From the NCBI GenBank assembly GCA_964423905.1, contig CAYRGX010000012.1, forward strand, positions 6,994-70,993: a stretch of 64,000 nucleotides of DNA. The letters run 5' to 3'. Below are positions 3,189 through 56,571 of the stretch, piece by piece; position 1 is the first letter of the stretch, and every line of letters starts with the position of its first letter. A program made the translations under genes and the position numbers. The notes beneath the pieces were generated by a model that had not been told where the DNA came from, ran no database searches, and saw nothing but the letters and a program-made list of their open reading frames with translations. The DNA comes from an uncultured Leptospirales bacterium (GTDB taxonomy: Bacteria; Spirochaetota; UBA4802; UBA5550).

Positions 3189-3596
3189 TCAATCGAGGAG
3201 GCGCCTGCTGCCCTCGAGCGAGCGAATGTCCTCGATGTCCATGGTGTGCTCCATGCAGCCCAGGTAGGTCCCGGAAGGGTCGCGGAGGGCGTAGAACTCT
3301 ATGAGCACCTTGTGCTTCCCGCCGGCGGGACCAAGGGGAAGATCGATCCAGAAACGCGCGCGGTCTCGGGTGCCCGACTTCATCTCGTCGACGATGCGCT
3401 CTACCAGGGGCAGGCTTTCCGTCGGATGGCATTCCCTGAAATTCAAGCCCATCGAGGTGAGCGAGCGCTTGAAGATGCGCCTGTCGTGCCGGTTCCATCC
3501 CACGACCTCGTCATTTGCGTCGATGACGGTGATCTCGGCGGGTAATGTCTCGATCACGGCCCTGACGGTTTTTTCGTCCATGCGGTCTATCATTGC
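3189..3596 (-). CDS. Stand-alone PAS-domain protein (DUF438/PAS_10-like)
   Basis: ETLPAEITVIDANDEVVGWN, GLNFRECHP and FYALRDPSGTYLGCME motifs. Confidence 0.75.
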   Translation of the reverse strand, partial: AMIDRMDEKTVRAVIETLPAEITVIDANDEVVGWNRHDRRIFKRSLTSMGLNFRECHPTESLPLVERIVDEMKSGTRDRARFWIDLPLGPAGGKHKVLIEFYALRDPSGTYLGCMEHTMDIEDIRSLEGSRRLLD

Positions 3597-3626
3597 ATAT
3601 CCTCCATGCACACGGGCGTAGCCGTC

Positions 3627-4375
3627 TCAGGCGCGCACCCGCCCGGTTTTCATGAACAGTGGAAACTCCACTCTGCGTATTATCGAACGATCCCCCCATG
3701 CGCGCCCGAGCTCGTCGCGTATCTCGTCGATGGGATCCTCTCCCTTTTCGCGCCGGTAGGCCCTGACGCTCGACCAGGTGCCGAGATAGCCAAGGAGCGC
3801 GTCCAGGTCCCACTCGGCGTTCATGCTGAATTCCGGCGCGGGAATCTCGTCGAACGGGAAGGGGATCGAGGCGTAGCGCGTCTCGATGTGCCGCCGCTCG
3901 GGAGGCCACCATGGGCCCACGATGTCGTGGTACAGGCGCCCCACCGCCTGGTCCACTTCGGGGCTGACGCGATGCAGGCCGTAACCCCACGCGGCGATGA
4001 CGCACCCCGGGGATGCGACACGACGCGCCTCCGCATAGAAGGCCCCGCAGTCGAACCAGTGAAGGGCCTGGGCCACGGTGATCGCGTCGATCGTGCCGTC
4101 GTCGATGCGCGCTCGCTCGGCAGGGAACACGCGGTAGTCGACGTTCGCCGCGGTCGCGCGTTTTGCACCTGGCTTTCGCTCGCGTCGGAAGCGATCACGC
4201 GGTCGTATCGTTCCGCCATTGCCAACGCGGCCTGGCCGTTGCCGGTCGCACAGTCCCAGGCACGCGCGGTCCGCGGCGAAAGGCCGGCGATGAAGTCGAA
4301 GATTTCGGGGGGATATGCCGGCCGGTGGGCGGCGTAGTCCGCCGAGTGTCCGGAGAAGTGGTCCTTGAAGATCAC
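3627..4375 (-). pseudogene. Class I SAM-dependent methyltransferase split by a 1-nt frameshift near 4150
   Basis: 5' frame FKDHFS...WDCATGNGQAA...DASESQV continues in another frame as NVDYRVFPAE...ITVAQALHWFD. Could be an assembly error. Confidence 0.75.
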
Positions 4376-4379
4376 GGCG

Positions 4380-4820
4380 TTAAACCGAAACCGTACCGCC
4401 GCATGACCTACACCTGCGCGCGCCCCTGAAAAGGCGCCCGCCGCACGAAGAACAGGCGTAGTGCGCCTCCTGGTCGGCCACCCATTCCCCGGTTTCCATC
4501 CGATTCCAGCGGGGGACTTCGCGCAGAATGACCTTTTTGCCTTCCTCCACGGGAAAGCTTTCGATGTGTTCGCATGGGAAATCGTCGCACCTGGAGCAGC
4601 CCTCGATGTTTCTCTGCGAGGTGCACTGCTTGATGGGACACGTGCGGCAGTACACGAACACCTCGTCCGAGAGGCATCCGCGGCAGGCGACCTGCTCGGG
4701 TGTCACGCCATAGGCCGCGGCAAGCTTTTTCTTCAACGATTCATCGGCCGCGGCATGGGCCAGGTAGATGCCGCAGGCGCCGCAGTACAATCCGCAGGGG
4801 GAAACGAGCTGCCTGTTCAT
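4380..4820 (-). CDS. DUF3795 Cys-rich protein with C-terminal Zn ribbon
   Basis: PCGLYCGAC, CRGC, CPIKQC, GCSRCDDFPC, CSSCG and CRSCG motifs. Confidence 0.8.
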   Translation of the reverse strand: MNRQLVSPCGLYCGACGIYLAHAAADESLKKKLAAAYGVTPEQVACRGCLSDEVFVYCRTCPIKQCTSQRNIEGCSRCDDFPCEHIESFPVEEGKKVILREVPRWNRMETGEWVADQEAHYACSSCGGRLFRGARRCRSCGGTVSV

Positions 4821-4942
4821 GGGGACCTCCTCGTGGCGGCCCGAACGGGGCCGGCCGTGATTAGATGAGCGCATACGGGACGGTTTTGCAAACATTTTTC
4901 AGCGGACACGGGCGCCGCATGGAGACGTTCCGGAACGGCATA

Positions 4943-5488
4943 TCAGACGGTGATGTCCACCTGGTAGTCGCCGTCACGCATGGTATATCGCACATCGTAC
5001 CCGAGCCCGTTAAGGACATGTCGTATCACGTCGTTGCCGGGATCCATCATGCTCCTGAACGATCTGATACCGTGTTCCTCGCCGATATCCACGATTTTCC
5101 CGAGCAGGATCGTGCCGAGACCGGCACGCTGCCAGTCGTCCCTGACCGCGATCGCAAGGTCGGTGAAGCCTTCGTCTGTGTCGAGGGCGTAGCGCGTCAC
5201 GGCGATCACGGCGTCGCGTCCGCCTTCCCCGACAACCGCGGCAAGCGCGAACTCGCGGTCGTAATCCACGTGCGTCAGGTGATGGAGCAGTTCATCGGGA
5301 AGGGAGGGGATATCGGACAGAAAGCGAAGGTGGACGGAGCGGGCCGAGAGGTGATCGAAAAGCGCCACGAGCAGGGGACCGTCATCGGGGCGTATGGGCC
5401 GGATGAAGACTTCCTTCCCGTTTTTCAGCGTAAGACGCTGCTCGTACCTGGGTGGATACGGCGCATGTTTTTTTCCCGGTTCGCTCAT
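4943..5488 (-). CDS. GNAT N-acetyltransferase (resembles the GNAT domain of Pat/Pka-type acetyltransferases)
   Basis: IRPIRPDD, RFLS, VDYDREFALAA and VRDDWQRAGLGT motifs. Confidence 0.8.
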   Translation of the reverse strand: MSEPGKKHAPYPPRYEQRLTLKNGKEVFIRPIRPDDGPLLVALFDHLSARSVHLRFLSDIPSLPDELLHHLTHVDYDREFALAAVVGEGGRDAVIAVTRYALDTDEGFTDLAIAVRDDWQRAGLGTILLGKIVDIGEEHGIRSFRSMMDPGNDVIRHVLNGLGYDVRYTMRDGDYQVDITV

Positions 5489-8012: not shown

Positions 8013-9271
8013 TGTTTCCGTACCGTGTCAGGGGCAGTCGTTTTAACGATTTCCGCAAACTTCAATATGGACACGGGTGGATAAAACTTGAGGCGCTTTG
8101 CCGTTTCCATGTTGACCAAGAACGAATATCGCTTGAGTGTCTCTATATTGATTTTCCCCGGGTTCTTGCCCCCGACGAGTATTTCAACCGCCTTGTAACC
8201 GGCAAACTGCCCCACGTTGTAGTAGTGGCTCACCACCCCCATGAGGGCTCCGCCCTTGATGATCGGGTCCTCCGTGGCGGAAAAGGTTTTTATCCCGAGG
8301 CGATTCAGCTCCTTCATCATGACGGTGGCGTGGGCGATGATGAAAGAATCGGATGGGATATACACGAGCGTAACGCCCTTCGATGCGATCTGCTCGACCA
8401 TGGCCGGCAGCGACGATGCGACTGGTTTTTTGGCATTGTCGAGGGGCAAAGGCGCGCGCACGAGCTCGATGCGGTTTTCACGGCACAGCCATTCGAGCTC
8501 GTCGACCTGCTGGATCGCGTTGTCCTCGGCGGGATTGTAAATGACGCCAATTTTTTTCACGTCGGTTACGGATCGCAGCGCGTTAAACTGGGCATCCATC
8601 GGGACAAGATGCGAGCAGCCGGTCAGGTTCCGGCCCGTCGTAAGAGATGTGTAATCGATCCGAAGAAGAATCTCCTGGAGCCGGGTCTCGGTGCGTTTCG
8701 AGATGCCTTTTACAAGAAGATACGAACGCCCGCGGCTCGCCATCCGGTATGACGAGTTGACGAGCACCCGGTCGCTCTTTTTCTCGAGACGTTCGAGTAT
8801 TTTTTTTTCGAAGACAGGGGCGCTAATTTTCCGCTCGAGCGCGGGGGGCGAGACAAACTTCGAGCCCACCGGTTTCGCTACGATGTTGAAAATGACGGGA
8901 ATGTCGGTGATGAACCTCTCCTTGTCCCGATCGCTATCAAGCCCGACGATGTACTTCGTCGTGGTCGTGCCGAAGGTGTATATCAGGTCTGGACGCTCTT
9001 TCTTGATCTCTGCCATGATGGCGGGCAGCGCGTTCTTGTCGTTTTTACAGTCGCGTATGGTATAGGTCGTGTTGACCTTTTTTTCAGCAAGGTAATCCAT
9101 GAACCCGCGCTCGGCGTCGGTAATACCCCGCCACACCACGAGAAACACCTTGTAGGGATCACGGGATTTTTCAGTGTTCCCGGCGGATGCCGCGATCGGG
9201 AGAAGCATCATGGCGGCGATGGCCACGGCGAGGATAGCCGCTCTGGAAAGGTTTTGCTTGATCGATTTCAT
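8009..9271 (-). CDS. ABC-type solute-binding protein (ABC_sub_bind family) with no ABC permease or ATPase nearby
   Basis: Signal peptide; DLIYTFGTT, IPVIFNIVAKPV, IGVIYNPAEDNA, GQFAGYKAVEILVGGKNPG. Overlaps both neighbours by 4 nt. Confidence 0.8.
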   Translation of the reverse strand: MKSIKQNLSRAAILAVAIAAMMLLPIAASAGNTEKSRDPYKVFLVVWRGITDAERGFMDYLAEKKVNTTYTIRDCKNDKNALPAIMAEIKKERPDLIYTFGTTTTKYIVGLDSDRDKERFITDIPVIFNIVAKPVGSKFVSPPALERKISAPVFEKKILERLEKKSDRVLVNSSYRMASRGRSYLLVKGISKRTETRLQEILLRIDYTSLTTGRNLTGCSHLVPMDAQFNALRSVTDVKKIGVIYNPAEDNAIQQVDELEWLCRENRIELVRAPLPLDNAKKPVASSLPAMVEQIASKGVTLVYIPSDSFIIAHATVMMKELNRLGIKTFSATEDPIIKGGALMGVVSHYYNVGQFAGYKAVEILVGGKNPGKINIETLKRYSFLVNMETAKRLKFYPPVSILKFAEIVKTTAPDTVRKQ

Positions 9272-11376
9272 TTTACTTTTTCCCGATGGTCTAGGATTGA
9301 ATAGGATATCATGAATATGAAGCTCGAAAGGATCGTAAGGATGCCTATGAACGCGATGGCATAGGGAAAGCTTTTCGTTTCGCCGTAGGAAGTCCCGAAA
9401 ATGGCAATCAGGACTCCCGCCACGATCGGTCCGGAGATGTTGCCAAGACGTTCGATCAGGCGATAGATGCCGACCACCGTGGCCATGCCGATGCGGCCGC
9501 CCTCCTCGACGCAGTCATCCGTGATCAGGGCCATCTGCGACGATACCTGTATGGAGTGGGCAACGCCGAGTATGCCGATGCTGAACAGAACGCCTGCCGT
9601 GGTCTGCCAGAAAAGCAACAGAAGAAGGCCGATGCCGGACATGATGCCGCCGATATTGGTAAACGCCCTCCTGAAATGCCACCGGTCCGCCACGGTCCCC
9701 ACCAGCGGGGATACGAATATCATCATGATCCCGTAGCTCATCAGGACTCGGCCTATTGACGATTGGGTATTGCCCAGTTGTTTAAGAAACATGGGCGCCG
9801 CATAGTACAGGAAACCGGTGAGGCATATCTTGGCGGGGATGGATGAAAACAGCGTGATCGACAGGAATTTTTTATTGCCCATGAGCAACTTGAAGTCCTG
9901 TATGCGCATCTTTTTTTTCTGGGCCGAGGCTTCCTTTCTTTGTTCCATGAGGTAGTTCGCCACGAAGAGGGCGGAGAGGAGCGATACCACCGCGGAGATA
10001 AAAAACGTAGTGCGAAAACCGATACGATCCACGAGGATTCCGCCGATGGCGGATCCGCACAACGAGCCCGAGAAGAACCCAGCGAGAAACATGGCCATGC
10101 CCTTGGTGCGGTTCTTCGACGTGGTGTTGTCGGTGATGTAGCCCTGGCAGGTGATGTACACCGTGCCGTATCCGATCGCGGTTATGGACCTCCAGAGAAG
10201 CAGGTCGTACATGGTCTGCGCGAGACCGGTGAGGATAAGGCCCGCCGACGTAAGGATTGCGCCCAGGATGAGGGGTTTGCGTCGGCCGATTTTATCCGAC
10301 CACGCCCCTGCGTACGGGAGCGAGAAGGCCCAGAAGAGCATGAATATGGATATCGGCAACCCGATGACGACGTTTTCGCTTATGCCGGGCACCGGCGTAT
10401 AGAGCTCTCTAACATAAAAGGGAAAAAACGACAGGGAAAGCGAATCCGCGAATATCAGCAGAAACAACGGCGGTCGTATGTAAATGAGACTGTTGAATGC
10501 GGTTTCCTGACGGTTGTCCGGTCCGAAGGTGTAGGTGCTCCGCAGCTTTTCGTAGCGTTTCTTGATTTCGGCGATTTTCGTACGCGCGCCCTTTTTCATC
10601 CGCGCGATCCTGTCCCCGAGTTCGTTGAAAGACCTGTTGATGGAAGTGATGACGTCGTTGAAGGTCTCCATGAAATCGCCGATTTCGTCGTTGGACTTGG
10701 TCTCGGTCAGGTACGAAAAATTCCCCCGCTTTGACCGCACCAGCAGGGCGTGGAGTGCGTTGATGGGCGCGGTTACTCCGTAATTTACGAGAAAGATGAC
10801 CATTTCGAACGAGATCAGGAGCGTGACAACGATTACGGTAATAATATCATATATGATGTCGAGCATCTTGGTGCGGACGTATTTCTTGTCGATGGCCACG
10901 GTAAGCGATCCCATGGTATTGCCGTCGAGAACGATGTTCGAAGTCTGCGTAAAATAATCGGAAGCATCGCCTGATGTTTTCACCGTCTTGGCGGTTTTAT
11001 CCTGCGACTGCGGGGCCGACCGGGTGTCGCGGGGTACATGCCCGGCCTGATAGAGACGGTGTTTCTGCATGTCGGTTATGATGATATAGGTTATCTCGGG
11101 ATTGTCTTTGATCACTGATGAAAGATATACTTCCATGCCGGTCAGCGACGTGAAGGGGACACCGTACCCGACTATTTTGCCCACGAGCGACTTGATGGAA
11201 TCGCTGATGACCACCGCCTTCTTGTCCATCTCGGGGACGATCGCCTTTTCGAAGCCTTTCAGCGCCACGTACGACATGGAAGCGGTGGAAATCAGGACCA
11301 GGGCAATGGTCGCAATGAAGATGCGGTTGTTGAAGCTCAGGTATTTTTTACTTTTTTCTGGCATGTTTTTTTGCAC
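9268..11376 (-). CDS. Fusion of TM-periplasmic sensor-TM-HAMP to a 12-TM MFS transporter
   Basis: N-terminal TM, ~130-aa extracytoplasmic domain, HAMP (APINALH...SNDEIGDFMETFN), then MFS motif A (GAWSDKIGRRK; GTVADRWHFRR). Confidence 0.85.
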   Translation of the reverse strand: MQKNMPEKSKKYLSFNNRIFIATIALVLISTASMSYVALKGFEKAIVPEMDKKAVVISDSIKSLVGKIVGYGVPFTSLTGMEVYLSSVIKDNPEITYIIITDMQKHRLYQAGHVPRDTRSAPQSQDKTAKTVKTSGDASDYFTQTSNIVLDGNTMGSLTVAIDKKYVRTKMLDIIYDIITVIVVTLLISFEMVIFLVNYGVTAPINALHALLVRSKRGNFSYLTETKSNDEIGDFMETFNDVITSINRSFNELGDRIARMKKGARTKIAEIKKRYEKLRSTYTFGPDNRQETAFNSLIYIRPPLFLLIFADSLSLSFFPFYVRELYTPVPGISENVVIGLPISIFMLFWAFSLPYAGAWSDKIGRRKPLILGAILTSAGLILTGLAQTMYDLLLWRSITAIGYGTVYITCQGYITDNTTSKNRTKGMAMFLAGFFSGSLCGSAIGGILVDRIGFRTTFFISAVVSLLSALFVANYLMEQRKEASAQKKKMRIQDFKLLMGNKKFLSITLFSSIPAKICLTGFLYYAAPMFLKQLGNTQSSIGRVLMSYGIMMIFVSPLVGTVADRWHFRRAFTNIGGIMSGIGLLLLLFWQTTAGVLFSIGILGVAHSIQVSSQMALITDDCVEEGGRIGMATVVGIYRLIERLGNISGPIVAGVLIAIFGTSYGETKSFPYAIAFIGILTILSSFIFMISYSILDHREKVK

Positions 11377-12250
11377 CTTTTCCGGCAGGTTTTGCAGACT
11401 TTCCGGCAGTTTTCGCGCCCCTGCCGGCCGGTTTTGCGTCCTTTCCGGTTGAATCTATTCGTTCGCCGATATCAGATATTTCATCCATGGCACGCGATAC
11501 GGTTCCCGAAAACTCGGCGAAATCGAGTTCCATGCCGTAGTGGGGTCCCGGGAGCGCGGCGCTCTCCCTGCGGGCAAGCAGTCCCTTCAGGGATTCGTTC
11601 ATCCCCACGATTTTATGGTTCAGTGAACGTGAAATGAGATGAACCGCGGCAAATGTTATCGCAGAGAACAGCAACAACGTCACAATAAAAAGAACAAGAA
11701 GATATATCAGTATACCCTGCATCGGTCGCGATATGATTGTCCTTGGATATGCCAGCGCCACCGAACCGACCCTGAGACCGAAGCTGTTGACGATGGGAAG
11801 AATGATATACGCGCGGTCGCCCAGAACGACTGTCGAGGTTCTTTCTTCGGTTTTTTTTGATTTCGAGACATGGTCGTGTTTTCTCATCGCGGCGATCAGG
11901 CTCGGGGACTCGGTTTTTCCCAGCCTGCCGGAATCCGTTCCGAAAAGGATGCGCCCCTTCTCGTCACAGACTTCCACCTCGGCGATGGCCGCGTCCTTTT
12001 TTTTCTGCTCCTCGGCGAACACCTGGATGTTTTTCATCTCCGGCAGGGCGAGACCCAGGTTCAGCTGGTATTCGATCGTGTTCTTGATATCCTTTCCCGC
12101 TACGTAGAACCGCGATGAAACCAGGTCGCCGTATGTTTTTTCGAAATTGAAAAAATTCAGGAGGAGGTTCAGTATGAGTGAAAAAACCAGGACAATGATC
12201 AGGATTATAGAAATTTTAAATGAGAAACGTTCCGTGAACCTGTTACCCAT
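11348..12250 (-). CDS. 2-TM extracytoplasmic sensor-like protein with degenerate HAMP and no output domain
   Basis: TM1-FEK-LGLALPEM-Cache-like-TM2; Lys/Ala-rich repeat tail; overlaps the MFS gene by 29 nt. Confidence 0.7.
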   Translation of the reverse strand: MGNRFTERFSFKISIILIIVLVFSLILNLLLNFFNFEKTYGDLVSSRFYVAGKDIKNTIEYQLNLGLALPEMKNIQVFAEEQKKKDAAIAEVEVCDEKGRILFGTDSGRLGKTESPSLIAAMRKHDHVSKSKKTEERTSTVVLGDRAYIILPIVNSFGLRVGSVALAYPRTIISRPMQGILIYLLVLFIVTLLLFSAITFAAVHLISRSLNHKIVGMNESLKGLLARRESAALPGPHYGMELDFAEFSGTVSRAMDEISDIGERIDSTGKDAKPAGRGAKTAGKSAKPAGKGAKKHARKK

Positions 12251-12638
12251 GGGTTACCGTCCGAAAGTGATACGTTTTATTGCAATGAAGCGGCTTATTT
12301 CTATTTACTAGTATCGGTATTAATTGTACACCTGTCAATGATAAATTCTTATATCCTCCCATCCGGGCGGAATAAACCGAATATCGGGCCTGGTGTTAGT
12401 GGCTGTTGAATCCCGCATGTTTTTTACGTGATGAATTATGCTCTCAAGGAGCGGCATGAAGGTCTAATGTGTCACTCGTGAGTGATTTCAAGTGCCTGGA
12501 ACGAATTGAGAATATGGCTGGATATGTTTCATTGCTGATATTGCATAACGTAGTTGACGGGCCACATGATCGATATGGGTGATCATGTCCGGTGCAGAAG
12601 CTTCGGCCGGATTATGTTGAATGCCATGTTCCGGTTGT

Positions 12639-13033
12639 TTAGCCGATGATTACCGAGCCGTCCGGGAAAACCAACACCCGGGTGCCGTCTGTCACCTCGT
12701 CTAAAAACGCGGGACCGAGCCTGTCGACGGTTTTTTCAAGAAGGCCGCAGGGCATTTTTTATAATCGAGGGGGCGGGGATCGGCGGTGAAGGGGCGCGGT
12801 GCGACGAGGCCCTCGCGGACGAGGTCGTCCATCAGCGAGAAAATGGGCTTCAGCATCGGGACGCCCACCGAGGTGACGATATGGCTGTCGTGGTCCAGCG
12901 GTGCAAGGCGGCCGGCGCCGAAGATCTCGCCATAACGAACGACTGATTCCATGGCTTTGCGGAGAACATCTCCCCGTGACCCGTCAAGTATCGCGCGCTC
13001 CTCACCGGTCAGGTTCATCGTGAATCGCGTCAT
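12639..13033 (-). pseudogene. Aconitase X (DUF521-DUF126 fusion type) remnant with a large internal deletion and a frameshift
   Basis: MNLTGEERAILDGSRG...AMESVVRYGEIFGA...FTADPRPLDY. A shift at the A6 run near 12755-12760 gives MPCGLLEK followed by TVDRLGPAFLDEVTDGTRVLVFPDGSVIIG*, resembling a swivel-domain C-terminus. Confidence 0.6.
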
Positions 13034-13226
13034 GCGTCGCTCCTTCGAGGATTGCCCGGCCGCATTTTCGCCGGTCCCGTTTACAAGATTACCACCGTCA
13101 TGTCCGGTGTCAAACAAATGACGGGCGCGGGAGAGCGCTTTCGTCCATCCGTCATTTTTTTGTTGCTTTTTCGTCGAAATGCTGTTCGGATCACATCGGT
13201 GTGCGAAAAAACCCACGGAGGCCCGC

Positions 13227-14675
13227 ATGCAGATTTTCGGCAACCCGATGACCCGATCGGCCGAACGTAAAGCCAGGCGCAACAAGGACAGGTTCGCGAA
13301 AAAATTCGGCTTTGACCCGCTCGCGACGTATCCCTTGAGCTCCTCGCCGAATGGAATCCTCGGCAGGTCAATGGGGCTCAGGGACCTCGTCGCCGGGAAG
13401 GAAGGCGATCCGCTCCGGGAAGGGAAGAGCCTTGTCGTTGGGACCATCCGGATGGGATATGGGCACTATCGTCCCGCGATTGCGGTGGCGTCCGCCGCGC
13501 ACTCGATGGGGATCACACCCTACTGGCTGGACCTCCTGGCCTTCGAAGGCACTCCCGGCGCAAAGATAATCCGTCATCTTGAGAAGCTCTACTCGCTCGG
13601 ATCGCGCCTGTCACAGAAAAGCGCGCTTTTCAACAGGCTTTACTGGGAGCCCCTCACCGCGGAAGGTTTCAAGAAACTCGCGTACAACGCCTCTGACAGG
13701 CTCATGTGCGAGCTCATGGCCCCCATCTACGGCGATATCCCGAAAGGCATCCCCGTGATAGGGACGCACGTGTGGCCGGCGATCGCCGCGCTCCACGCGG
13801 GAATGGAGAGGGTCGTGAACATGATCCCGGACAACTGGCCCCTGGGGCTGCACCTCGCCGAGGGCGCGATCCATGCGGTACAAACCCCGTCGGTGCATAT
13901 GGGATACCGCACGCTGAAAAACATGGCGAAAAAGGGCATGCCGTTGAATCCCATCCCGCCCGACAGTATCCGATGGGTGGGGCACAACATCGACCATGAG
14001 ATCGTGAAGGGCATCGAGAAGGATTGCGCCGCGCGCGTGAAAAGGGCCGAGGGGCGACAGACCCTCCGCGTGCTCATATCAATCGGGGGCGCCGGAGCGC
14101 AGATCGGCACCGTGCGCGCGATCATCAGGCACCTCGCACCGCGAATCAGAGACGGCGCGGTCGATCTATTCGTCAACTCCGGCGACCACGAAAACGTCTT
14201 TACTCTCCTGAACGAAGAGATGGAACGATGCCGGCTTTTACCGTCGCTTCATACCGACTGGAAGGATTCCGAGAAGACGGCGCTGCAGGCCCTGACAAAG
14301 CGCGCCCCGGGCGTGCACCATTTTTACAACGGTAATATTTTCGCAGCGGTCTACGCGACGAACCAGCTCATGCGAGCGAGCGACATACTAGTGACCAAAC
14401 CGAGTGAGCTATCGTTCTACCCGGTCCCGAAGCTTTTCATCAAGAGGGTGGGAGGGCACGAGGCGTGGGGGGCGATACGCAGCTCCGAGGTGGGCGACGG
14501 TACCCTGGAATGCGAGACTGATGCCCTCGCCCTTCAGGCCCTGGACCTGCTCACGGACGATCGGGATCTCCTTCTCATGTACTGTGAAAATATCATAAAA
14601 CAGAAAAAGATCGGCACCTATGACGGTGCCTACAACGTTGTGTCACTGGCGTTTGACCGGAAAAAAATGAAATGA
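13227..14675 (+). CDS. Uncharacterised GT-B-fold glycosyltransferase-like protein (MGDG-synthase/GT28-like)
   Basis: MGYGHYR, IGTHVWPA, ISIGGAGAQ, SDILVTKPSELS and VGGHEAWGA motifs; GGAGG RBS before ATG 13227. Confidence 0.55.
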   Translation: MQIFGNPMTRSAERKARRNKDRFAKKFGFDPLATYPLSSSPNGILGRSMGLRDLVAGKEGDPLREGKSLVVGTIRMGYGHYRPAIAVASAAHSMGITPYWLDLLAFEGTPGAKIIRHLEKLYSLGSRLSQKSALFNRLYWEPLTAEGFKKLAYNASDRLMCELMAPIYGDIPKGIPVIGTHVWPAIAALHAGMERVVNMIPDNWPLGLHLAEGAIHAVQTPSVHMGYRTLKNMAKKGMPLNPIPPDSIRWVGHNIDHEIVKGIEKDCAARVKRAEGRQTLRVLISIGGAGAQIGTVRAIIRHLAPRIRDGAVDLFVNSGDHENVFTLLNEEMERCRLLPSLHTDWKDSEKTALQALTKRAPGVHHFYNGNIFAAVYATNQLMRASDILVTKPSELSFYPVPKLFIKRVGGHEAWGAIRSSEVGDGTLECETDALALQALDLLTDDRDLLLMYCENIIKQKKIGTYDGAYNVVSLAFDRKKMK

Positions 14676-15871
14676 ACACGCAGCATGACGATACAACGGC
14701 AGAAACACGAGACCGCGCCATATCCGAAGGAACAGCCCTGTTCGGGAAGCACTTCGGGACCGAAGGCGATGTCGAGATATTCTTTTCTCCGGGGCGCGTG
14801 AACCTCATCGGAGAACACCTGGATTACAACGGGGGCCCGGTGTTTCCCGCCGCGATATCGGTCGGGATTTACGCCTTCGCCCGACCGAGGGCGGACGGCA
14901 TCGTGCGCATGCGCTCGGCGCAATTTAATGAAGAGATCGAGATCATGCCCGCAGCGGGGATGGAACGACCGCGGCAGGGGACCTGGGGTGATTTCCCGGC
15001 CGGCGTGGTGATGTGCTTTATGAACGCGGGGCGCGGAATGCCGCGGGGGTGCGACGTGTTTTTCATGAGTACCATGCCCGACGGCGCGGGCCTTTCGTCG
15101 TCCGCCTCACTCGAGGTTCTCACGGCGTGCGCGCTTTACGAAACAGTCGGGGACAGTCCCGGGGATCGCGTGGACGTGGCCCTGCTCTGCCAGAAGGCGG
15201 AGAACGAGTACGTGGGAGTGCAGTGCGGCATCATGGACCAGTTTGCGGTTGCCATGGGAAAAGCGGGGCACGCGATACTTCTCGATACCGGCACGCTGGG
15301 ATACCGCCATGTCCCCCTCCGCCTGGGGGAGTATTCGCTCGTGATCATGAACAGCAACAAGCGCCGCGAGCTTGCCGGTTCGAAATACAATGAGCGCCGG
15401 GGCGAGTGCGAACGCGCGCTCGAGGAGATGCGCGCCGCCCGGCAGGAGCTCACGTGCCTGGCGAATGCCACGCCCGGGGATCTCGCCTCTGTGACGGAAG
15501 GCACCTTGCGGAAAAGGGCCCGTCACGTGATGACCGAAACGGCGCGGGTGAACGAATCCGTCAGGCTCCTTGATGCCGACGACCTGGAGACGTTCGGTAC
15601 CCTGATGATCGAGTCGCACCGGTCGCTCCAGTCCGACTACGAGGTCACCGGTCACGAGCTCGATTCGCTGGTCGACGCCGCCCTCGAGGTCGACGGGTGC
15701 ATCGGCGCCCGCATGACGGGCGCGGGTTTCGGCGGGTGCGCGCTCGCGCTCGTCCACGGGGGGGCGCTCGGTGAATTCGAAAAATGGGTGCGGCACCGTT
15801 ATGCGGCCTCCACCGGACTCGACGCGGGCCTTTTTACCGCGCGGCCGGAAAATGGAGCCGGGAGGATATGA
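14672..15871 (+). CDS. galK: Galactokinase
   Basis: PGRVNLIGEHLDYNGG, GAGLSSSAS, CGIMDQFA and GARMTGAGFGGC motifs. Confidence 0.95.
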   Translation: MNTQHDDTTAETRDRAISEGTALFGKHFGTEGDVEIFFSPGRVNLIGEHLDYNGGPVFPAAISVGIYAFARPRADGIVRMRSAQFNEEIEIMPAAGMERPRQGTWGDFPAGVVMCFMNAGRGMPRGCDVFFMSTMPDGAGLSSSASLEVLTACALYETVGDSPGDRVDVALLCQKAENEYVGVQCGIMDQFAVAMGKAGHAILLDTGTLGYRHVPLRLGEYSLVIMNSNKRRELAGSKYNERRGECERALEEMRAARQELTCLANATPGDLASVTEGTLRKRARHVMTETARVNESVRLLDADDLETFGTLMIESHRSLQSDYEVTGHELDSLVDAALEVDGCIGARMTGAGFGGCALALVHGGALGEFEKWVRHRYAASTGLDAGLFTARPENGAGRI

Positions 15872-51405: not shown

Positions 51406-52473
51406 TCAGACGATGCCCCTCAGCTTCGCGATCTGCAGCATCTGTTCCGCGCTTGTCGCCGGGGGTACCATCTGCGTCGCTCCCTGTTTCGGGGCGAGGG
51501 TGATCGCGCCGGCAGTGCATGCGACGACGCACAGGCCGCAGCCGATGCAGCGTTCTTGGCTGACAGAGGCGGCGCCACCATCGGGGAGCGTGATCGCTTC
51601 CATCTGGCAGCGGTCGATGCACGCTCCGCAGGCGGTGCAATTTTTCCCGGCGCTTTCGGCCTGGTAATTGGAAAAGACGAGTTCCGCGGGCCTGGGGAAG
51701 CGTTTTATCGCCTGTAGGACGCCGCAGCAATCCCCGCAGCAGTTGCACATGCCGGCCGGGTTCTGGGCCGTGCCGGGCTGGGTCACGAGGCCCTGCTCCT
51801 GCGAGTTCCTGAGAATGGCGAGGGCCTCGGCCTGATCTATCTTTCTGCCGATCCCGTTATCGATATAGTACCGGGCCATGGACCCGAACATGAAGCACGT
51901 CTCGAGGGGCTTGCCGCAGCCTTTTCCCGAGATACTTTTTTCCTTCCGGCAGATGCATTCGGCGACCGCGATCGCATCGTTTTTTTCGATGATCGCCCGG
52001 GCATCCTCGAACGCGGCCACACGGGGCTCGAGAATGATGGAACGCTCCACGGGGACCGGCCGCAGGAAAAGCCCCTTGATGCCGGCGATGGCCCTGTGGA
52101 ATTTTTCCTCGTAATACTTTTCGAAGAGCTCCGCCAGTTCGGGATCGAGCCTGGCAATCCTGAATTCGAGCAACCCGTGCATGAATGGAATGGCCCCGTA
52201 TTTTACCGAATCCCCTTTTCTGAGGCGGAAGAGGAGGCCGCGGCCTGCCATGTCTTCGAGGCGGGCCGAAACCTCTTCGGCAGGCATTCCCAGCCGCGCC
52301 GCCACTGAAGCGGGATCTTCCAGCTTCGGGCTCATCAACAGAAAGAACGAGGCTTCCTTTTCGTCGAAGAGCCGTTTCAGTATTTCGATCTCGATCCCCG
52401 ATTCCGTTTCCGGGAAGCCCAGGGAATACATGTCCAGCCGTTTCCGCAATTCATGATACACGCTATCCGTCAT
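51406..52473 (-). CDS. Cys-rich 4Fe-4S binding protein (paralogue 3)
   Basis: CICR...C...C, CNCCGDCC, CTACGACIDRC, CIGCGLCVVAC. Confidence 0.85.
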   Translation of the reverse strand: MTDSVYHELRKRLDMYSLGFPETESGIEIEILKRLFDEKEASFFLLMSPKLEDPASVAARLGMPAEEVSARLEDMAGRGLLFRLRKGDSVKYGAIPFMHGLLEFRIARLDPELAELFEKYYEEKFHRAIAGIKGLFLRPVPVERSIILEPRVAAFEDARAIIEKNDAIAVAECICRKEKSISGKGCGKPLETCFMFGSMARYYIDNGIGRKIDQAEALAILRNSQEQGLVTQPGTAQNPAGMCNCCGDCCGVLQAIKRFPRPAELVFSNYQAESAGKNCTACGACIDRCQMEAITLPDGGAASVSQERCIGCGLCVVACTAGAITLAPKQGATQMVPPATSAEQMLQIAKLRGIV

Positions 52474-54377: not shown

Positions 54378-54575
54378 TATTTTCTCCTTCTTTCTTGCGA
54401 AATTTGTTTTATCCAGACTGGATTTTGACACGGCCATACACCCGTGTCAACAGTATTGGCGGCACTTTTCTTTTTTTTGTTGAGCTCTCATTGCTGACTG
54501 TTCCAATCGTCGCATCAATGTCGTCCCGGTCCTCGAAAATCACATGGGCCTGCGGTCAAGCTCGACGCAGGCGAG

Positions 54576-54601
54576 GGCCCCTCCCCGTCGCAGGAGGGGC
54601 C
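54576..54601. terminator. GC-rich hairpin downstream of the EXPERA gene (possible terminator; no U-tract)
   Basis: Perfect 9-bp stem GGCCCCTCC/GGAGGGGCC with an 8-nt loop. Confidence 0.4.
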
Positions 54602-54615
54602 GCGCGATCCTGTTC

Positions 54616-55185
54616 CTAACCGTCTTTTCTGCTGAATGGCCTGTCCTTCCACATCCTCACCGCGAGAAGCAATGGCACGATTTTGTAGGGAAGGTTGAAC
54701 GCCAGGAACTTGGCCGCGTTTTGCACGGTGAGGTCCGGCGTGAGCCCGGATTTCGCGAGCTCCTCGGCGGTTTTCAGACCACCCGCGCTCATCTGAGCGT
54801 AGAACGCCCCGTCGCCGGCGAATTCAACCACGAGGATCACTATCATGCTTTCGATGATCATGCCCGCGTACACCAGGGCGAAGGGCCTGATCCAGTTCCT
54901 GCCCCTGATGAATGAATAGACAAGAACCAGGTAAAACGGGCCGAAGACGAACGCCGAGATCGCGCACATGGTGCGGAGCCACAGCGGGTTTGCGATGAGA
55001 AGGGGATCGCACCCCAGAGCATAGGCGTGGTACGCGGCACGGGCCCAGAAGTAGCCGCTGGCCGGGTCCGGCCGCATGACCGCGTTGACCATGTCAGCGG
55101 CGAACGAAGTGAATGCAAAAGCCGAAAACATGACAATGAAAAACAGGTCATATTTCCGCTCCTTCAGGGGAATGATGGAATCCAT
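54616..55185 (-). CDS. EXPERA / emopamil-binding (sterol delta8-delta7 isomerase-like) membrane protein
   Basis: YA-x-G-x-DPLL-x-x-NP-x-W-x-R, SAFVFGPFY, FNLPY-x-x-VPLLL; 4 TM; AAGGAGG RBS before ATG 55185. Confidence 0.75.
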   Translation of the reverse strand: MDSIIPLKERKYDLFFIVMFSAFAFTSFAADMVNAVMRPDPASGYFWARAAYHAYALGCDPLLIANPLWLRTMCAISAFVFGPFYLVLVYSFIRGRNWIRPFALVYAGMIIESMIVILVVEFAGDGAFYAQMSAGGLKTAEELAKSGLTPDLTVQNAAKFLAFNLPYKIVPLLLAVRMWKDRPFSRKDG

Positions 55186-55293
55186 AGGCAAATCCTCCTT
55201 TATGGTTCGCCGTCCTCCCTGTGTGTGTTGAGGGGGCCGGCGTTTGTGCGCTGTATAGAACCGTCCGCGCGGAACCGCGTCGGGGGTTTTCTG

Positions 55294-56571
55294 TCAATAT
55301 ATCCGCGGGACGATCCGCCATGGGACGAGCTTCTTGTATTCGTCCCAGTCGGTCCCGTATTTCAGGGAGCACTTGCGATCGTCCCGCCGCTCCCTGTGAA
55401 CCAGGAGCGCGGTGAAGTAGATCACGTAGAAATAGGGTATCGGCGAATCGAAAAGGCAGGGCAGGCACCACGCGAGGGCCATCATGATGTCGCCCACGTA
55501 ATTGAAATGCCGTGCAAGGCCCCAGAATCCCGAAACAAGAATGCGGTTCCCATGGGAGGTCTGGATGAAGCGGGGTTCATGACCCCAGATGCGCTGCCCC
55601 GGCCGCGTGCGGAACCTGTGCTTCTGGAGATTGGTCGCGCGGAAGATGTAATATCCCGCCATGTTGAGAAGAATGATCCCCGCGGCGGCCATAACAGGCA
55701 GCGCGTGGGGGTGGCCTATCAGGTAGAATGCCTGCAGGCTGTACGTCAGCGGCACCCAGACAAGGTCGCCGAAAGCAAGCATCCAGCCGAAACGGTCGTG
55801 GACGATGTCCACCGTGGTGAGGATCGCCGGTTCATGTAGGTAGTAATCGGCCACGTATAGGAACTGGATCGCCACGGTGACCGCCATCGCCAGGGTGATT
55901 TCACCGTGCGTCCGGTACTGGACCGCCATGAACGAAAAATTGATCATCATCCAGCCGATGAGACCGGGCCGCGCCTCGCAGAAAAATTTCAAGTCGAACC
56001 CCGTTTTCGGGGGGATGCGCGGATTAAGGGAGGTCCCGAGAAAGAAGTCCTGTATGATGCTCCCAGATGGATTATCGCTGCCGGTTTTTTTCCCGAAAAA
56101 ATACAGGAACGCGGCAAAGGCGTATACGAAAATAATCCCCGCGGATATGATCCCGCCGAAATTATCGTACACGATCGCGGGGTCGACAATGTCGAACCAG
56201 ACGAGAACCGCGGCAGTGGCGATTGATACCAAAAACGCCGCGGGACCGTTCATCCTGTACGAGAGGGCGCTTCCATCGGGGAGTTTCACCCCCGTGTGCA
56301 TGCGCCCGGGAAGGAGCGCGGCAAGCGCGGCCTGGAACGCGAACCATCCCAGGAACACCGCCCACGCGCCCGGGGCCGGCACGATGCTCTCCAGAAAAGA
56401 GCCGAACGGCGCGTAACTGATAAAAGCACCGGGAAGTAAGGCGCCCCCGTTGAAGCGTACGGAAAAATAAAGATAATACACCGTCAACGGCAGGCCGATC
56501 ATTAGAATGACGTTCCCGGCCGGGCCTCCGAATTCAAACTTCGGTTTTTCGATGCTGTTCGTCGTTGCCAT
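55294..56571 (-). CDS. ERG4/ERG24 family sterol reductase (C14-/delta7-reductase-like)
   Basis: GSIIQDFFLGTSLNPR, FFCEARPGLIGW, FGWMLAFGDLVWVP, GFWGLARHFNY, LVHRERRDDRKCSLKYGTDWDEY. Confidence 0.93.
   Translation of the reverse strand: MATTNSIEKPKFEFGGPAGNVILMIGLPLTVYYLYFSVRFNGGALLPGAFISYAPFGSFLESIVPAPGAWAVFLGWFAFQAALAALLPGRMHTGVKLPDGSALSYRMNGPAAFLVSIATAAVLVWFDIVDPAIVYDNFGGIISAGIIFVYAFAAFLYFFGKKTGSDNPSGSIIQDFFLGTSLNPRIPPKTGFDLKFFCEARPGLIGWMMINFSFMAVQYRTHGEITLAMAVTVAIQFLYVADYYLHEPAILTTVDIVHDRFGWMLAFGDLVWVPLTYSLQAFYLIGHPHALPVMAAAGIILLNMAGYYIFRATNLQKHRFRTRPGQRIWGHEPRFIQTSHGNRILVSGFWGLARHFNYVGDIMMALAWCLPCLFDSPIPYFYVIYFTALLVHRERRDDRKCSLKYGTDWDEYKKLVPWRIVPRIY

Follow-up and report, generated by a model that had tools for sequence, protein, structure and literature searches.

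The closest characterised relative of the reductase considered here is MaSR1 of Methylotuvimicrobium alcaliphilum, whose demonstrated activity is the delta14 reduction of a delta8,14-diene. Homologues of the ERG4/ERG24 sterol reductases also occur in Coxiella and Legionella, intracellular bacteria that produce no sterols and are thought to modify those of their hosts. In the route that includes EBP, the human delta8-delta7 isomerase with catalytic residues His76, Glu80 and Glu122, C14 reduction and delta8-delta7 isomerisation come after C14 demethylation. This demethylation is carried out by Cyp51 in aerobic methanotrophs (PMC13277303). ERG2, the fungal supplier of delta8-delta7 isomerase, and EBP are unrelated families that perform the same isomerisation; in animals, the two sigma receptors are related to them (bioRxiv 10.1101/2021.04.29.441652). 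Here we describe a pair of adjacent genes in a 64,000-nucleotide window, the whole stretch of DNA analysed, from an uncultured Leptospirales bacterium (contig CAYRGX010000012.1, positions 6,994 to 70,993). The first encodes a predicted NADPH sterol reductase of the ERG4/ERG24 family and MaSR1 type, and the second a predicted four-helix membrane protein of the EXPERA family that resembles sigma-2/TMEM97. The components are of known kinds; together they form a conserved cassette in bacteria without detected sterol synthesis.

The reductase gene (55294..56571, minus strand) encodes 425 amino acids with about ten transmembrane helices, as judged by homology. The protein matches PF01222 (ERG4_ERG24) with 434.5 bits over profile positions 4-432 of 432 (cut-off 27), and NCBIfam holds no model for it or for the EXPERA protein. 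We take the PROSITE signatures of the family to be G-x2-[LIVM]-[YH]-D-x-[FYWM]-x-G-x2-L-N-P-R and [LIVM]2-[HN]-R-x2-R-D-x3-C-x2-K-Y-G. The initial annotation had claimed both: the second, LVHRERRDDRKCSLKYG, is intact and exact, and the first, GSIIQDFFLGTSLNPR, is exact but for a Gln at the [YH] position. This Gln is not special among homologues, since, of the 27 nearest homologues with a recognisable motif, 20 have His there, 4 Gln and 3 Tyr; a change of specificity at this site was therefore rejected. In a phmmer search of the PDB only two entries matched, MaSR1 (4QUV, 438 bits) and a fungal delta14-reductase (9L5R, 289 bits), so that both solved relatives are delta14 enzymes. Along its whole length the protein is about 50% identical to MaSR1. 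In ungapped C-terminal alignment blocks, MaSR1 Asn359 and Arg395, which belong to the NADPH pocket (PMC4951196), are kept as N357 and R393, and the putative catalytic pair Tyr241 and Asp363 (PMC12489058) is kept as Y239 and D361. The enzyme 8,14-Bsr (PMC13277303) was set aside, being of an unrelated NTF2 fold.

A quick maximum-likelihood tree, built without named DHCR7, ERG4 or LBR references, places the reductase within a spirochaete group (SH-aLRT 81) nested in a larger clade (SH-aLRT 95) that also holds a mostly Myxococcota-labelled group; MaSR1 falls outside this clade and the fungal enzyme far outside. From its sequence, the reductase may act at delta14, delta7 or delta24, all of which are candidates. 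In some relatives there is another ERG4_ERG24 copy, divergent (about 255 bits) and unlinked to any EXPERA gene, for example at locus L063 (G117:C2:196000-213999; 8058-9398, plus strand) and in genomes G090 and G095.

The partner gene (54616..55185, minus strand) encodes 189 amino acids. Its product belongs to the EXPERA superfamily: it matches PF05241 (EBP/EXPERA) with 56.5 bits (cut-off 25.7), and its AlphaFold2 model (mean pLDDT 93.8) shows the four-helix transmembrane EXPERA fold. Within the superfamily it is closer to TMEM97 than to EBP. A single-sequence search of the PDB returned sigma-2/TMEM97 only (E 2.5e-4), and a profile of 65 bacterial EXPERA homologues matched TMEM97 at E 2.7e-14, TM6SF1 at 2.8e-9 and EBP at 0.006. 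A Foldseek search with the model likewise placed the bovine sigma-2 receptor first (TM-score 0.71-0.74) and EBP second (0.51-0.59). Similarity to EBP is thus marginal and clearly below that to TMEM97. The initial annotation, which named an EBP/EXPERA isomerase-like gene, was right as to the family; "EBP isomerase-like" is too specific for what sequence and predicted fold describe, namely a bacterial TMEM97-like EXPERA member whose function is a prediction.

The profile alignment pairs D31 with the ligand-pairing acid of sigma-2, Asp29, D60 with Asp56 in loop 1, and Y55 and Y106 with the conserved Tyr50 and Tyr103. The second acid of sigma-2, at position 73, is not kept and corresponds to S77. 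Across 110 bacterial EXPERA homologues, four positions, D13, D31 (Asp or Glu), D60 and E121, either do not vary or carry an acid throughout, and the invariant E121 may stand in for the acid of position 73. Literature searches on bacterial EXPERA proteins returned no relevant paper. A second, shorter EXPERA type (170-178 aa) is found, unlinked, in eight genomes of the spirochaete family.

The two genes had been annotated as a tandem on one strand about 110 nt apart, and the DNA bears this out, with the EXPERA gene downstream of the reductase gene and a spacer of 108 nt (55186..55293, minus strand). The mechanical open reading frame of the EXPERA gene spans 55191..54616 (minus strand). Its probable start is the ATG at 55185, which is preceded at 8 nt by an AAGGAGG ribosome-binding site (55200-55194) and yields the same 189-aa product as the database gene call P0121. 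No terminator-like site was found on the minus strand within the spacer. A GC-rich hairpin begins 15 nt past the EXPERA stop (54576..54601, minus strand; predicted by RNA folding, without a U tract); the fold of 54615..54566 reaches -29.9 kcal/mol with a 10-bp G+C stem (z = -2.2 against shuffles), and the hairpin is a possible 3' end of a bicistronic transcript. Past it, a promoter-like TTGACA-17-CAAAAT (54450-54422) stands ahead of the next gene. Given the uninterrupted spacer, the hairpin beyond the second stop and this promoter-like site, the reductase and EXPERA genes look like a bicistronic unit.

The strongest genomic argument for the role of the EXPERA protein comes from a parallel in other bacteria. 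With MaSR1 as query, 22 loci were collected from Methylococcales, Rokubacteria, Polyangia and others (L144-L165), and in 17 of them an ERG2_Sigma1R gene (160-180 bits) lies directly upstream of the reductase gene on the same strand. In M. buryatense (L154), whose reductase is a 99% identical orthologue of MaSR1, the ERG2-type gene occupies 3292-3930 and the reductase gene 3950-5233, both on the plus strand; in one further Haliangium metagenome-assembled genome (MAG) the ERG2-type gene is convergent with the reductase gene. An EXPERA gene was found beside the MaSR1-type reductase in none of the 22 loci, and no ERG2 gene was found at the spirochaete loci. Two non-homologous isomerase-family genes therefore share the same slot beside one reductase family, which suggests that the EXPERA partner works on the same sterol ring system as the reductase.

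The pair is also conserved among spirochaetes. The closest homologues of both proteins are encoded in Spirochaetota MAGs, some of them labelled Leptospirales. At spirochaete loci fetched via either protein, the two genes are adjacent in all 12 genomes, in tandem in 10 and convergent in 2, so that synteny elsewhere, the lack of which the initial annotation counted towards a refutation, holds in many relatives and in two orientations. The reductase is present in 16 of 122 species genomes of the host's order, all of one family, and in 15 of 401 genomes of an even phylum sample, 14 of these 15 again belonging to the host's family. Among the 48 genomes of this family searched for reductase, EXPERA and cyclase alike, 14 carry the adjacent pair, spread over five genera. 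Over 66 pairs, the pairwise identities of one protein track those of the other (r = 0.94), which indicates that the two have been inherited together. The more distant bacterial EXPERA proteins (35-47% identity) had no ERG4/ERG24 neighbour in five of five contexts inspected (Myxococcales, Catellatospora and three metagenomic contigs).

Selection on the pair does not depend on a sterol cyclase in the same genome. In a lineage without cyclase (L031 against L038), the reductase gene has a dN/dS of 0.093 and the EXPERA gene one of 0.041, at an unsaturated dS of about 0.6, and these values resemble those of cyclase-bearing lineages. That the genes are relics was rejected on the low dN/dS of both.

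The host genome is a Spirochaetota MAG of 4.38 Mb in 111 contigs, 89% complete with 0.1% contamination, and the pair lies on a contig of 115.6 kb. The window had been described as free of cyclase, epoxidase and desaturase genes; this is confirmed, and the enzymes searched for are missing from the whole assembly too. Searches of the entire MAG, at this level of completeness, found no oxidosqualene cyclase (OSC) or squalene-hopene cyclase (SHC), squalene epoxidase (SE), cytochrome P450, squalene/phytoene synthase (SQS_PSY) or FA_hydroxylase, and hence no complete aerobic sterol pathway; nor did they find an ERG2-type gene or a second copy of the reductase or EXPERA gene. Likewise, tblastn with the OSC, U32-like, idi2 and DUF116 sequences of relatives returned nothing, whereas NrdD from the OSC region of those relatives was recovered at 77-83% identity.

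The MAG encodes the methylerythritol phosphate (MEP) pathway and polyprenyl synthases. Its sole cyclase-type match in the genome search is a 300-aa monodomain squalene-cyclase-like protein (31.6 bits), which matches PF13243 with 46.6 bits over about 90 residues. The gene follows an amine-oxidase-family gene (324 aa) at about 110.9-113.9 kb of contig C3 (L001 103-2007, plus strand), and the two possibly form a small terpenoid-cyclase cassette.

As regards oxygen, and on motif-level evidence, the genome encodes NrdD and at least four glycyl-radical-type enzymes, and a simple motif scan of it found neither a catalase motif nor a haem-copper oxidase motif. A gene at about 87.2-88.5 kb of contig C2 encodes a CydA-like subunit I of cytochrome bd that carries the GRQPW motif. 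The earlier description of the host as an apparent anaerobe is accordingly kept in part: a fair reading of these genes is an anaerobe that is probably oxygen-tolerant, and not a strict one.

The family as a whole is not uniformly sterol-free, given that some relatives possess a true cyclase. A full-length cyclase was found in 11 of the 48 family genomes, and in four relatives checked in detail it is a genuine OSC, which scores 637 bits with human lanosterol synthase and 164 with SHC. These four proteins have the motif ITDCTAE (DCTAE) and Y/H/I at three further positions, which we presume to mark cycloartenol synthases. Cyclase and pair occur together in five genomes, the pair alone in nine and the cyclase alone in six; the association is not significant (Fisher p = 0.26), and a tie between pair and cyclase was rejected on this ground. 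Four pair-only genomes are 96-99% complete, and the probability that all four miss a cyclase through incompleteness is below 1e-6, which makes its absence real. Together with the purifying selection in the pair-only lineage, this argues that the pair is functional without endogenous sterol synthesis. An FA_hydroxylase-type oxygenase was found in 11 of the 19 family genomes searched for it. The pair may derive from an endogenous sterol pathway or, in some members, serve one.

In the relatives, the OSC gene stands in an operon behind a gene for a 442-aa protein with a weak Peptidase_U32 match, and is followed by a full set of MEP-pathway genes with nrdDG adjoining. An example is L047 (G003:C2:1866000-1885999), where the U32-like and OSC genes occupy 11361-14730 on the minus strand; the arrangement recurs in L048 and among L064-L143. 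Among the 80 loci fetched, which belong to Spirochaetota, Myxococcota, Fibrobacterota, Bacteroidota and other groups, the U32-like proteins are 56-93% identical, and in 40 of these loci the gene is directly upstream of the OSC gene. No SE, SQS_PSY or P450 was found in the OSC-bearing relatives searched, most of which have one unlinked FA_hydroxylase gene. Judged by this gene context, the U32-like protein is a candidate for catalysing an early sterol-synthesis step in an unconventional way. Literature searches combining U32 with sterol terms returned no relevant paper, and the gene had no tblastn match in the window's genome. With true cyclases but no SE, SQS or CYP51, the family is well suited to a search for unconventional first stages of this kind.

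Taken together, these features lead us to propose, with somewhat better than even confidence, that the pair is a reductase-plus-isomerase (or sterol-handing) module which requires NADPH, works without O2 and has the ring double bonds of sterols as its target, the sterols being scavenged ones in this host. The two inner-membrane proteins would form one functional unit that remodels sterol ring double bonds without oxygen. The reductase would saturate a nuclear C=C bond with NADPH, transferring hydride to the allylic cation that arises when a ring diene is protonated, a mechanism proposed for ERG24 (PMC12489058). For the EXPERA protein two roles can be envisaged. Its buried acidic pocket could shift a neighbouring double bond by protonation and deprotonation, in the manner of a delta8-to-delta7 isomerisation, or it could bind the sterol and present it to the reductase. 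We infer that the substrate is a sterol and that, since the genome shows no genes for squalene, oxidosqualene or the sterol nucleus, it is most likely exogenous, taken up from eukaryotic material in the habitat; delta5,7, delta7 or delta8 sterols of fungi, algae or protists would be examples. In relatives that own a cyclase, the same pair could act on an endogenous product. There is a precedent for sterols in an anaerobic spirochaete, Brachyspira, whose membranes are rich in cholesterol and cholestanol (PMC4683989). Also in favour of the proposal, human cells that lose TMEM97 build up FF-MAS, on which the C14 reductase acts (PMC13382799). The suggestion of the initial annotation, an O2-independent tailoring of scavenged lipids, is thus favoured by the missing synthesis genes, the synteny and the purifying selection; it needs qualifying in that the isomerase role is a prediction and that some relatives have cyclases.

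Several observations weigh against this proposal. The second acidic residue of the sigma-2 pocket, at position 73, is Ser77 in the EXPERA protein. TMEM97 itself fails both to rescue erg2 yeast and to convert zymostenol (bioRxiv 10.1101/2021.04.29.441652), and because it showed no delta8-delta7 isomerase activity the term isomerase is applied to the EXPERA protein in a predicted sense, even though all parts needed for isomerase chemistry seem to be present in sigma-2 according to the same work (bioRxiv 10.1101/2021.04.29.441652). CYP51 was found in none of the 13 pair genomes searched, so that the classical delta8,14 substrate is not made in the cell; any delta8,14-diene would need an external source, in which it occurs as a rare intermediate, and the regiochemistry may instead be delta7, delta24 or other. 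The MAG is 89% complete, and anaerobiosis is deduced from gene content alone in a genome that encodes a cytochrome bd subunit. Finally, no transporter or lipid-uptake gene is conserved beside the pair, whose neighbours vary by genus and are mostly signalling proteins.

These neighbours were considered as a clue to uptake or regulation and rejected, the reductase and EXPERA genes being all that is common across genera. In one genus (L006-L010) the pair lies on one strand between cNMP-binding and HDOD genes on its upstream side and, on its downstream side, genes for a Cache-HAMP adenylate cyclase and a FecR-domain protein (for example L010, 3991-5937 and 8367-12372), flanks that are not kept in other genera. 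In the window, genes lying downstream on the same strand encode an outer-membrane-protein (OMP) beta-barrel-like protein and a CsgG/LpoB-like lipoprotein, neither of which is conserved beside the pair in relatives. The gene at 51406-52473 (minus strand), three genes downstream of the pair, encodes a protein of 355 amino acids that has a 2x[4Fe-4S] domain at its C terminus; two other genomes (L031, L038) also have an orthologue of it in the neighbourhood of the pair. The 4Fe-4S protein and a SpoIIE phosphatase near the pair are shared with the window by two genomes.

An alternative that we consider unlikely is that the EXPERA protein is a sterol sensor or chaperone and not an enzyme, the reductase alone doing the chemistry, and that the unit detoxifies, adjusts or signals membrane sterols. 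The failure of sigma-2/TMEM97 in isomerase assays (bioRxiv 10.1101/2021.04.29.441652) is in keeping with such a role. So is the observation that loss of human TMEM97 perturbs C14 reduction without any physical interaction being detected (PMC13382799), and so is the genus whose pair has cNMP-binding, HDOD and adenylate-cyclase genes around it. Against it, four buried acids that are invariant or always acidic in 110 homologues would be more usual in an enzyme, the corresponding partner in other bacteria comes from the ERG2 isomerase family, and the signalling neighbours are not conserved outside that one genus.

Rather doubtful is a second alternative, in which the substrate of the pair is an isoprenoid of the cell's own making but not a sterol, such as a product of the monodomain cyclase-like protein and the amine-oxidase-like flavoprotein or a polyprenol. 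The MEP pathway, the polyprenyl synthases and the 300-aa cyclase-like protein beside its amine-oxidase-family neighbour could supply such a compound; the pair persists without a sterol cyclase, and SRD5A3 and TECR, wider relatives of the reductase fold, reduce non-sterol lipids. To our knowledge, though, the characterised members of PF01222 are all sterol reductases, and the reductase shares with MaSR1 about half of its residues over the full length as well as the catalytic ones. The nearest structural relatives of the partner, moreover, bind sterols, including 7MFI with cholesterol, and the cyclase-like gene is unlinked to the pair.

Very improbable, lastly, is that the pair belongs to a de novo sterol pathway of the host and that the assembly simply does not include the cyclase and the rest: the MAG is indeed incomplete, and relatives do have cyclases, true OSCs where checked and in five cases together with the pair in one genome, but SE, P450, SQS and FA_hydroxylase are likewise not found in it, the tblastn queries for OSC, U32-like, idi2 and DUF116 came back blank where NrdD did not, and four nearly complete pair genomes lack a cyclase against a chance of less than 1e-6.

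If the module proposed above, an O2-free remodeller of sterol rings, is sound, its significance extends beyond this locus. Enzymes that modify sterols would be extended to free-living, apparently anaerobic spirochaetes without detected sterol synthesis, which bears on the alteration of sterols in anoxic communities and on the reading of sterane and stanol biomarkers. The coupling of a bacterial C14-type reductase to either an ERG2/sigma-1-type or an EXPERA/sigma-2-type gene also offers a testable handle on the roles of sigma-1 and sigma-2/TMEM97, two receptors of pharmacological interest for which an enzymatic activity was never found, and the pair hints at the original role of the human sigma-2/TMEM97 family. 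A much bolder view, which we put forward as speculation and think quite unlikely to hold in full, is that both human sigma-receptor families come from obligate partners of C14-type reductases, in a two-component machine of reductase and small acidic-pocket partner for conjugated ring dienes, and that with the U32-family gene there is an O2-free sterol metabolism. If true, such a machine would explain why loss of TMEM97 blocks the C14-reduction step in human cells, and in this spirochaete family the machine, together with a U32-family gene that in some members replaces squalene epoxidase beside the cyclase, would amount to sterol metabolism without molecular oxygen.

Compared with known systems, the spirochaete pair shares with EBP (6OHT) the EXPERA superfamily and the same pathway neighbourhood as ERG24, TM7SF2 and LBR. 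It differs in the weakness of the match (profile E 0.006, TM-score 0.51-0.59) and in that EBP has five transmembrane helices; the eukaryotic genes, moreover, are not operon-linked and their pathway depends on O2. With Coxiella and Legionella it has in common a sterol reductase homologue in a bacterium that does not make sterols; those hosts, however, are intracellular, and we know of no EXPERA partner of their reductases.

Sigma-2/TMEM97 (7M93, 7M95, 7MFI), which has the same four kinked transmembrane helices, is the best match of the EXPERA protein in both sequence and fold, and equivalents of Asp29, Asp56, Tyr50 and Tyr103 are kept. Unlike TMEM97, to which it is about 20% identical, the bacterial protein has a Ser at position 73, an insert of about 35 residues between the third and fourth helices and an invariant Glu121 without TMEM97 counterpart, and its gene is probably operon-linked to a reductase gene. 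Another close system is that of MaSR1 (4QUV). The two reductases are of the same family and length, match at 438 bits and have in common the catalytic Tyr and Asp and the Asn and Arg of the NADPH pocket, and in both cases the reductase gene stands directly beside a gene whose product is a small membrane protein of a family to which delta8-delta7 isomerases belong. The partner of MaSR1 is of the ERG2/sigma-1 type and its host an aerobic, sterol-producing methanotroph, whereas here the same position is taken by an EXPERA protein in a probably oxygen-tolerant anaerobe.

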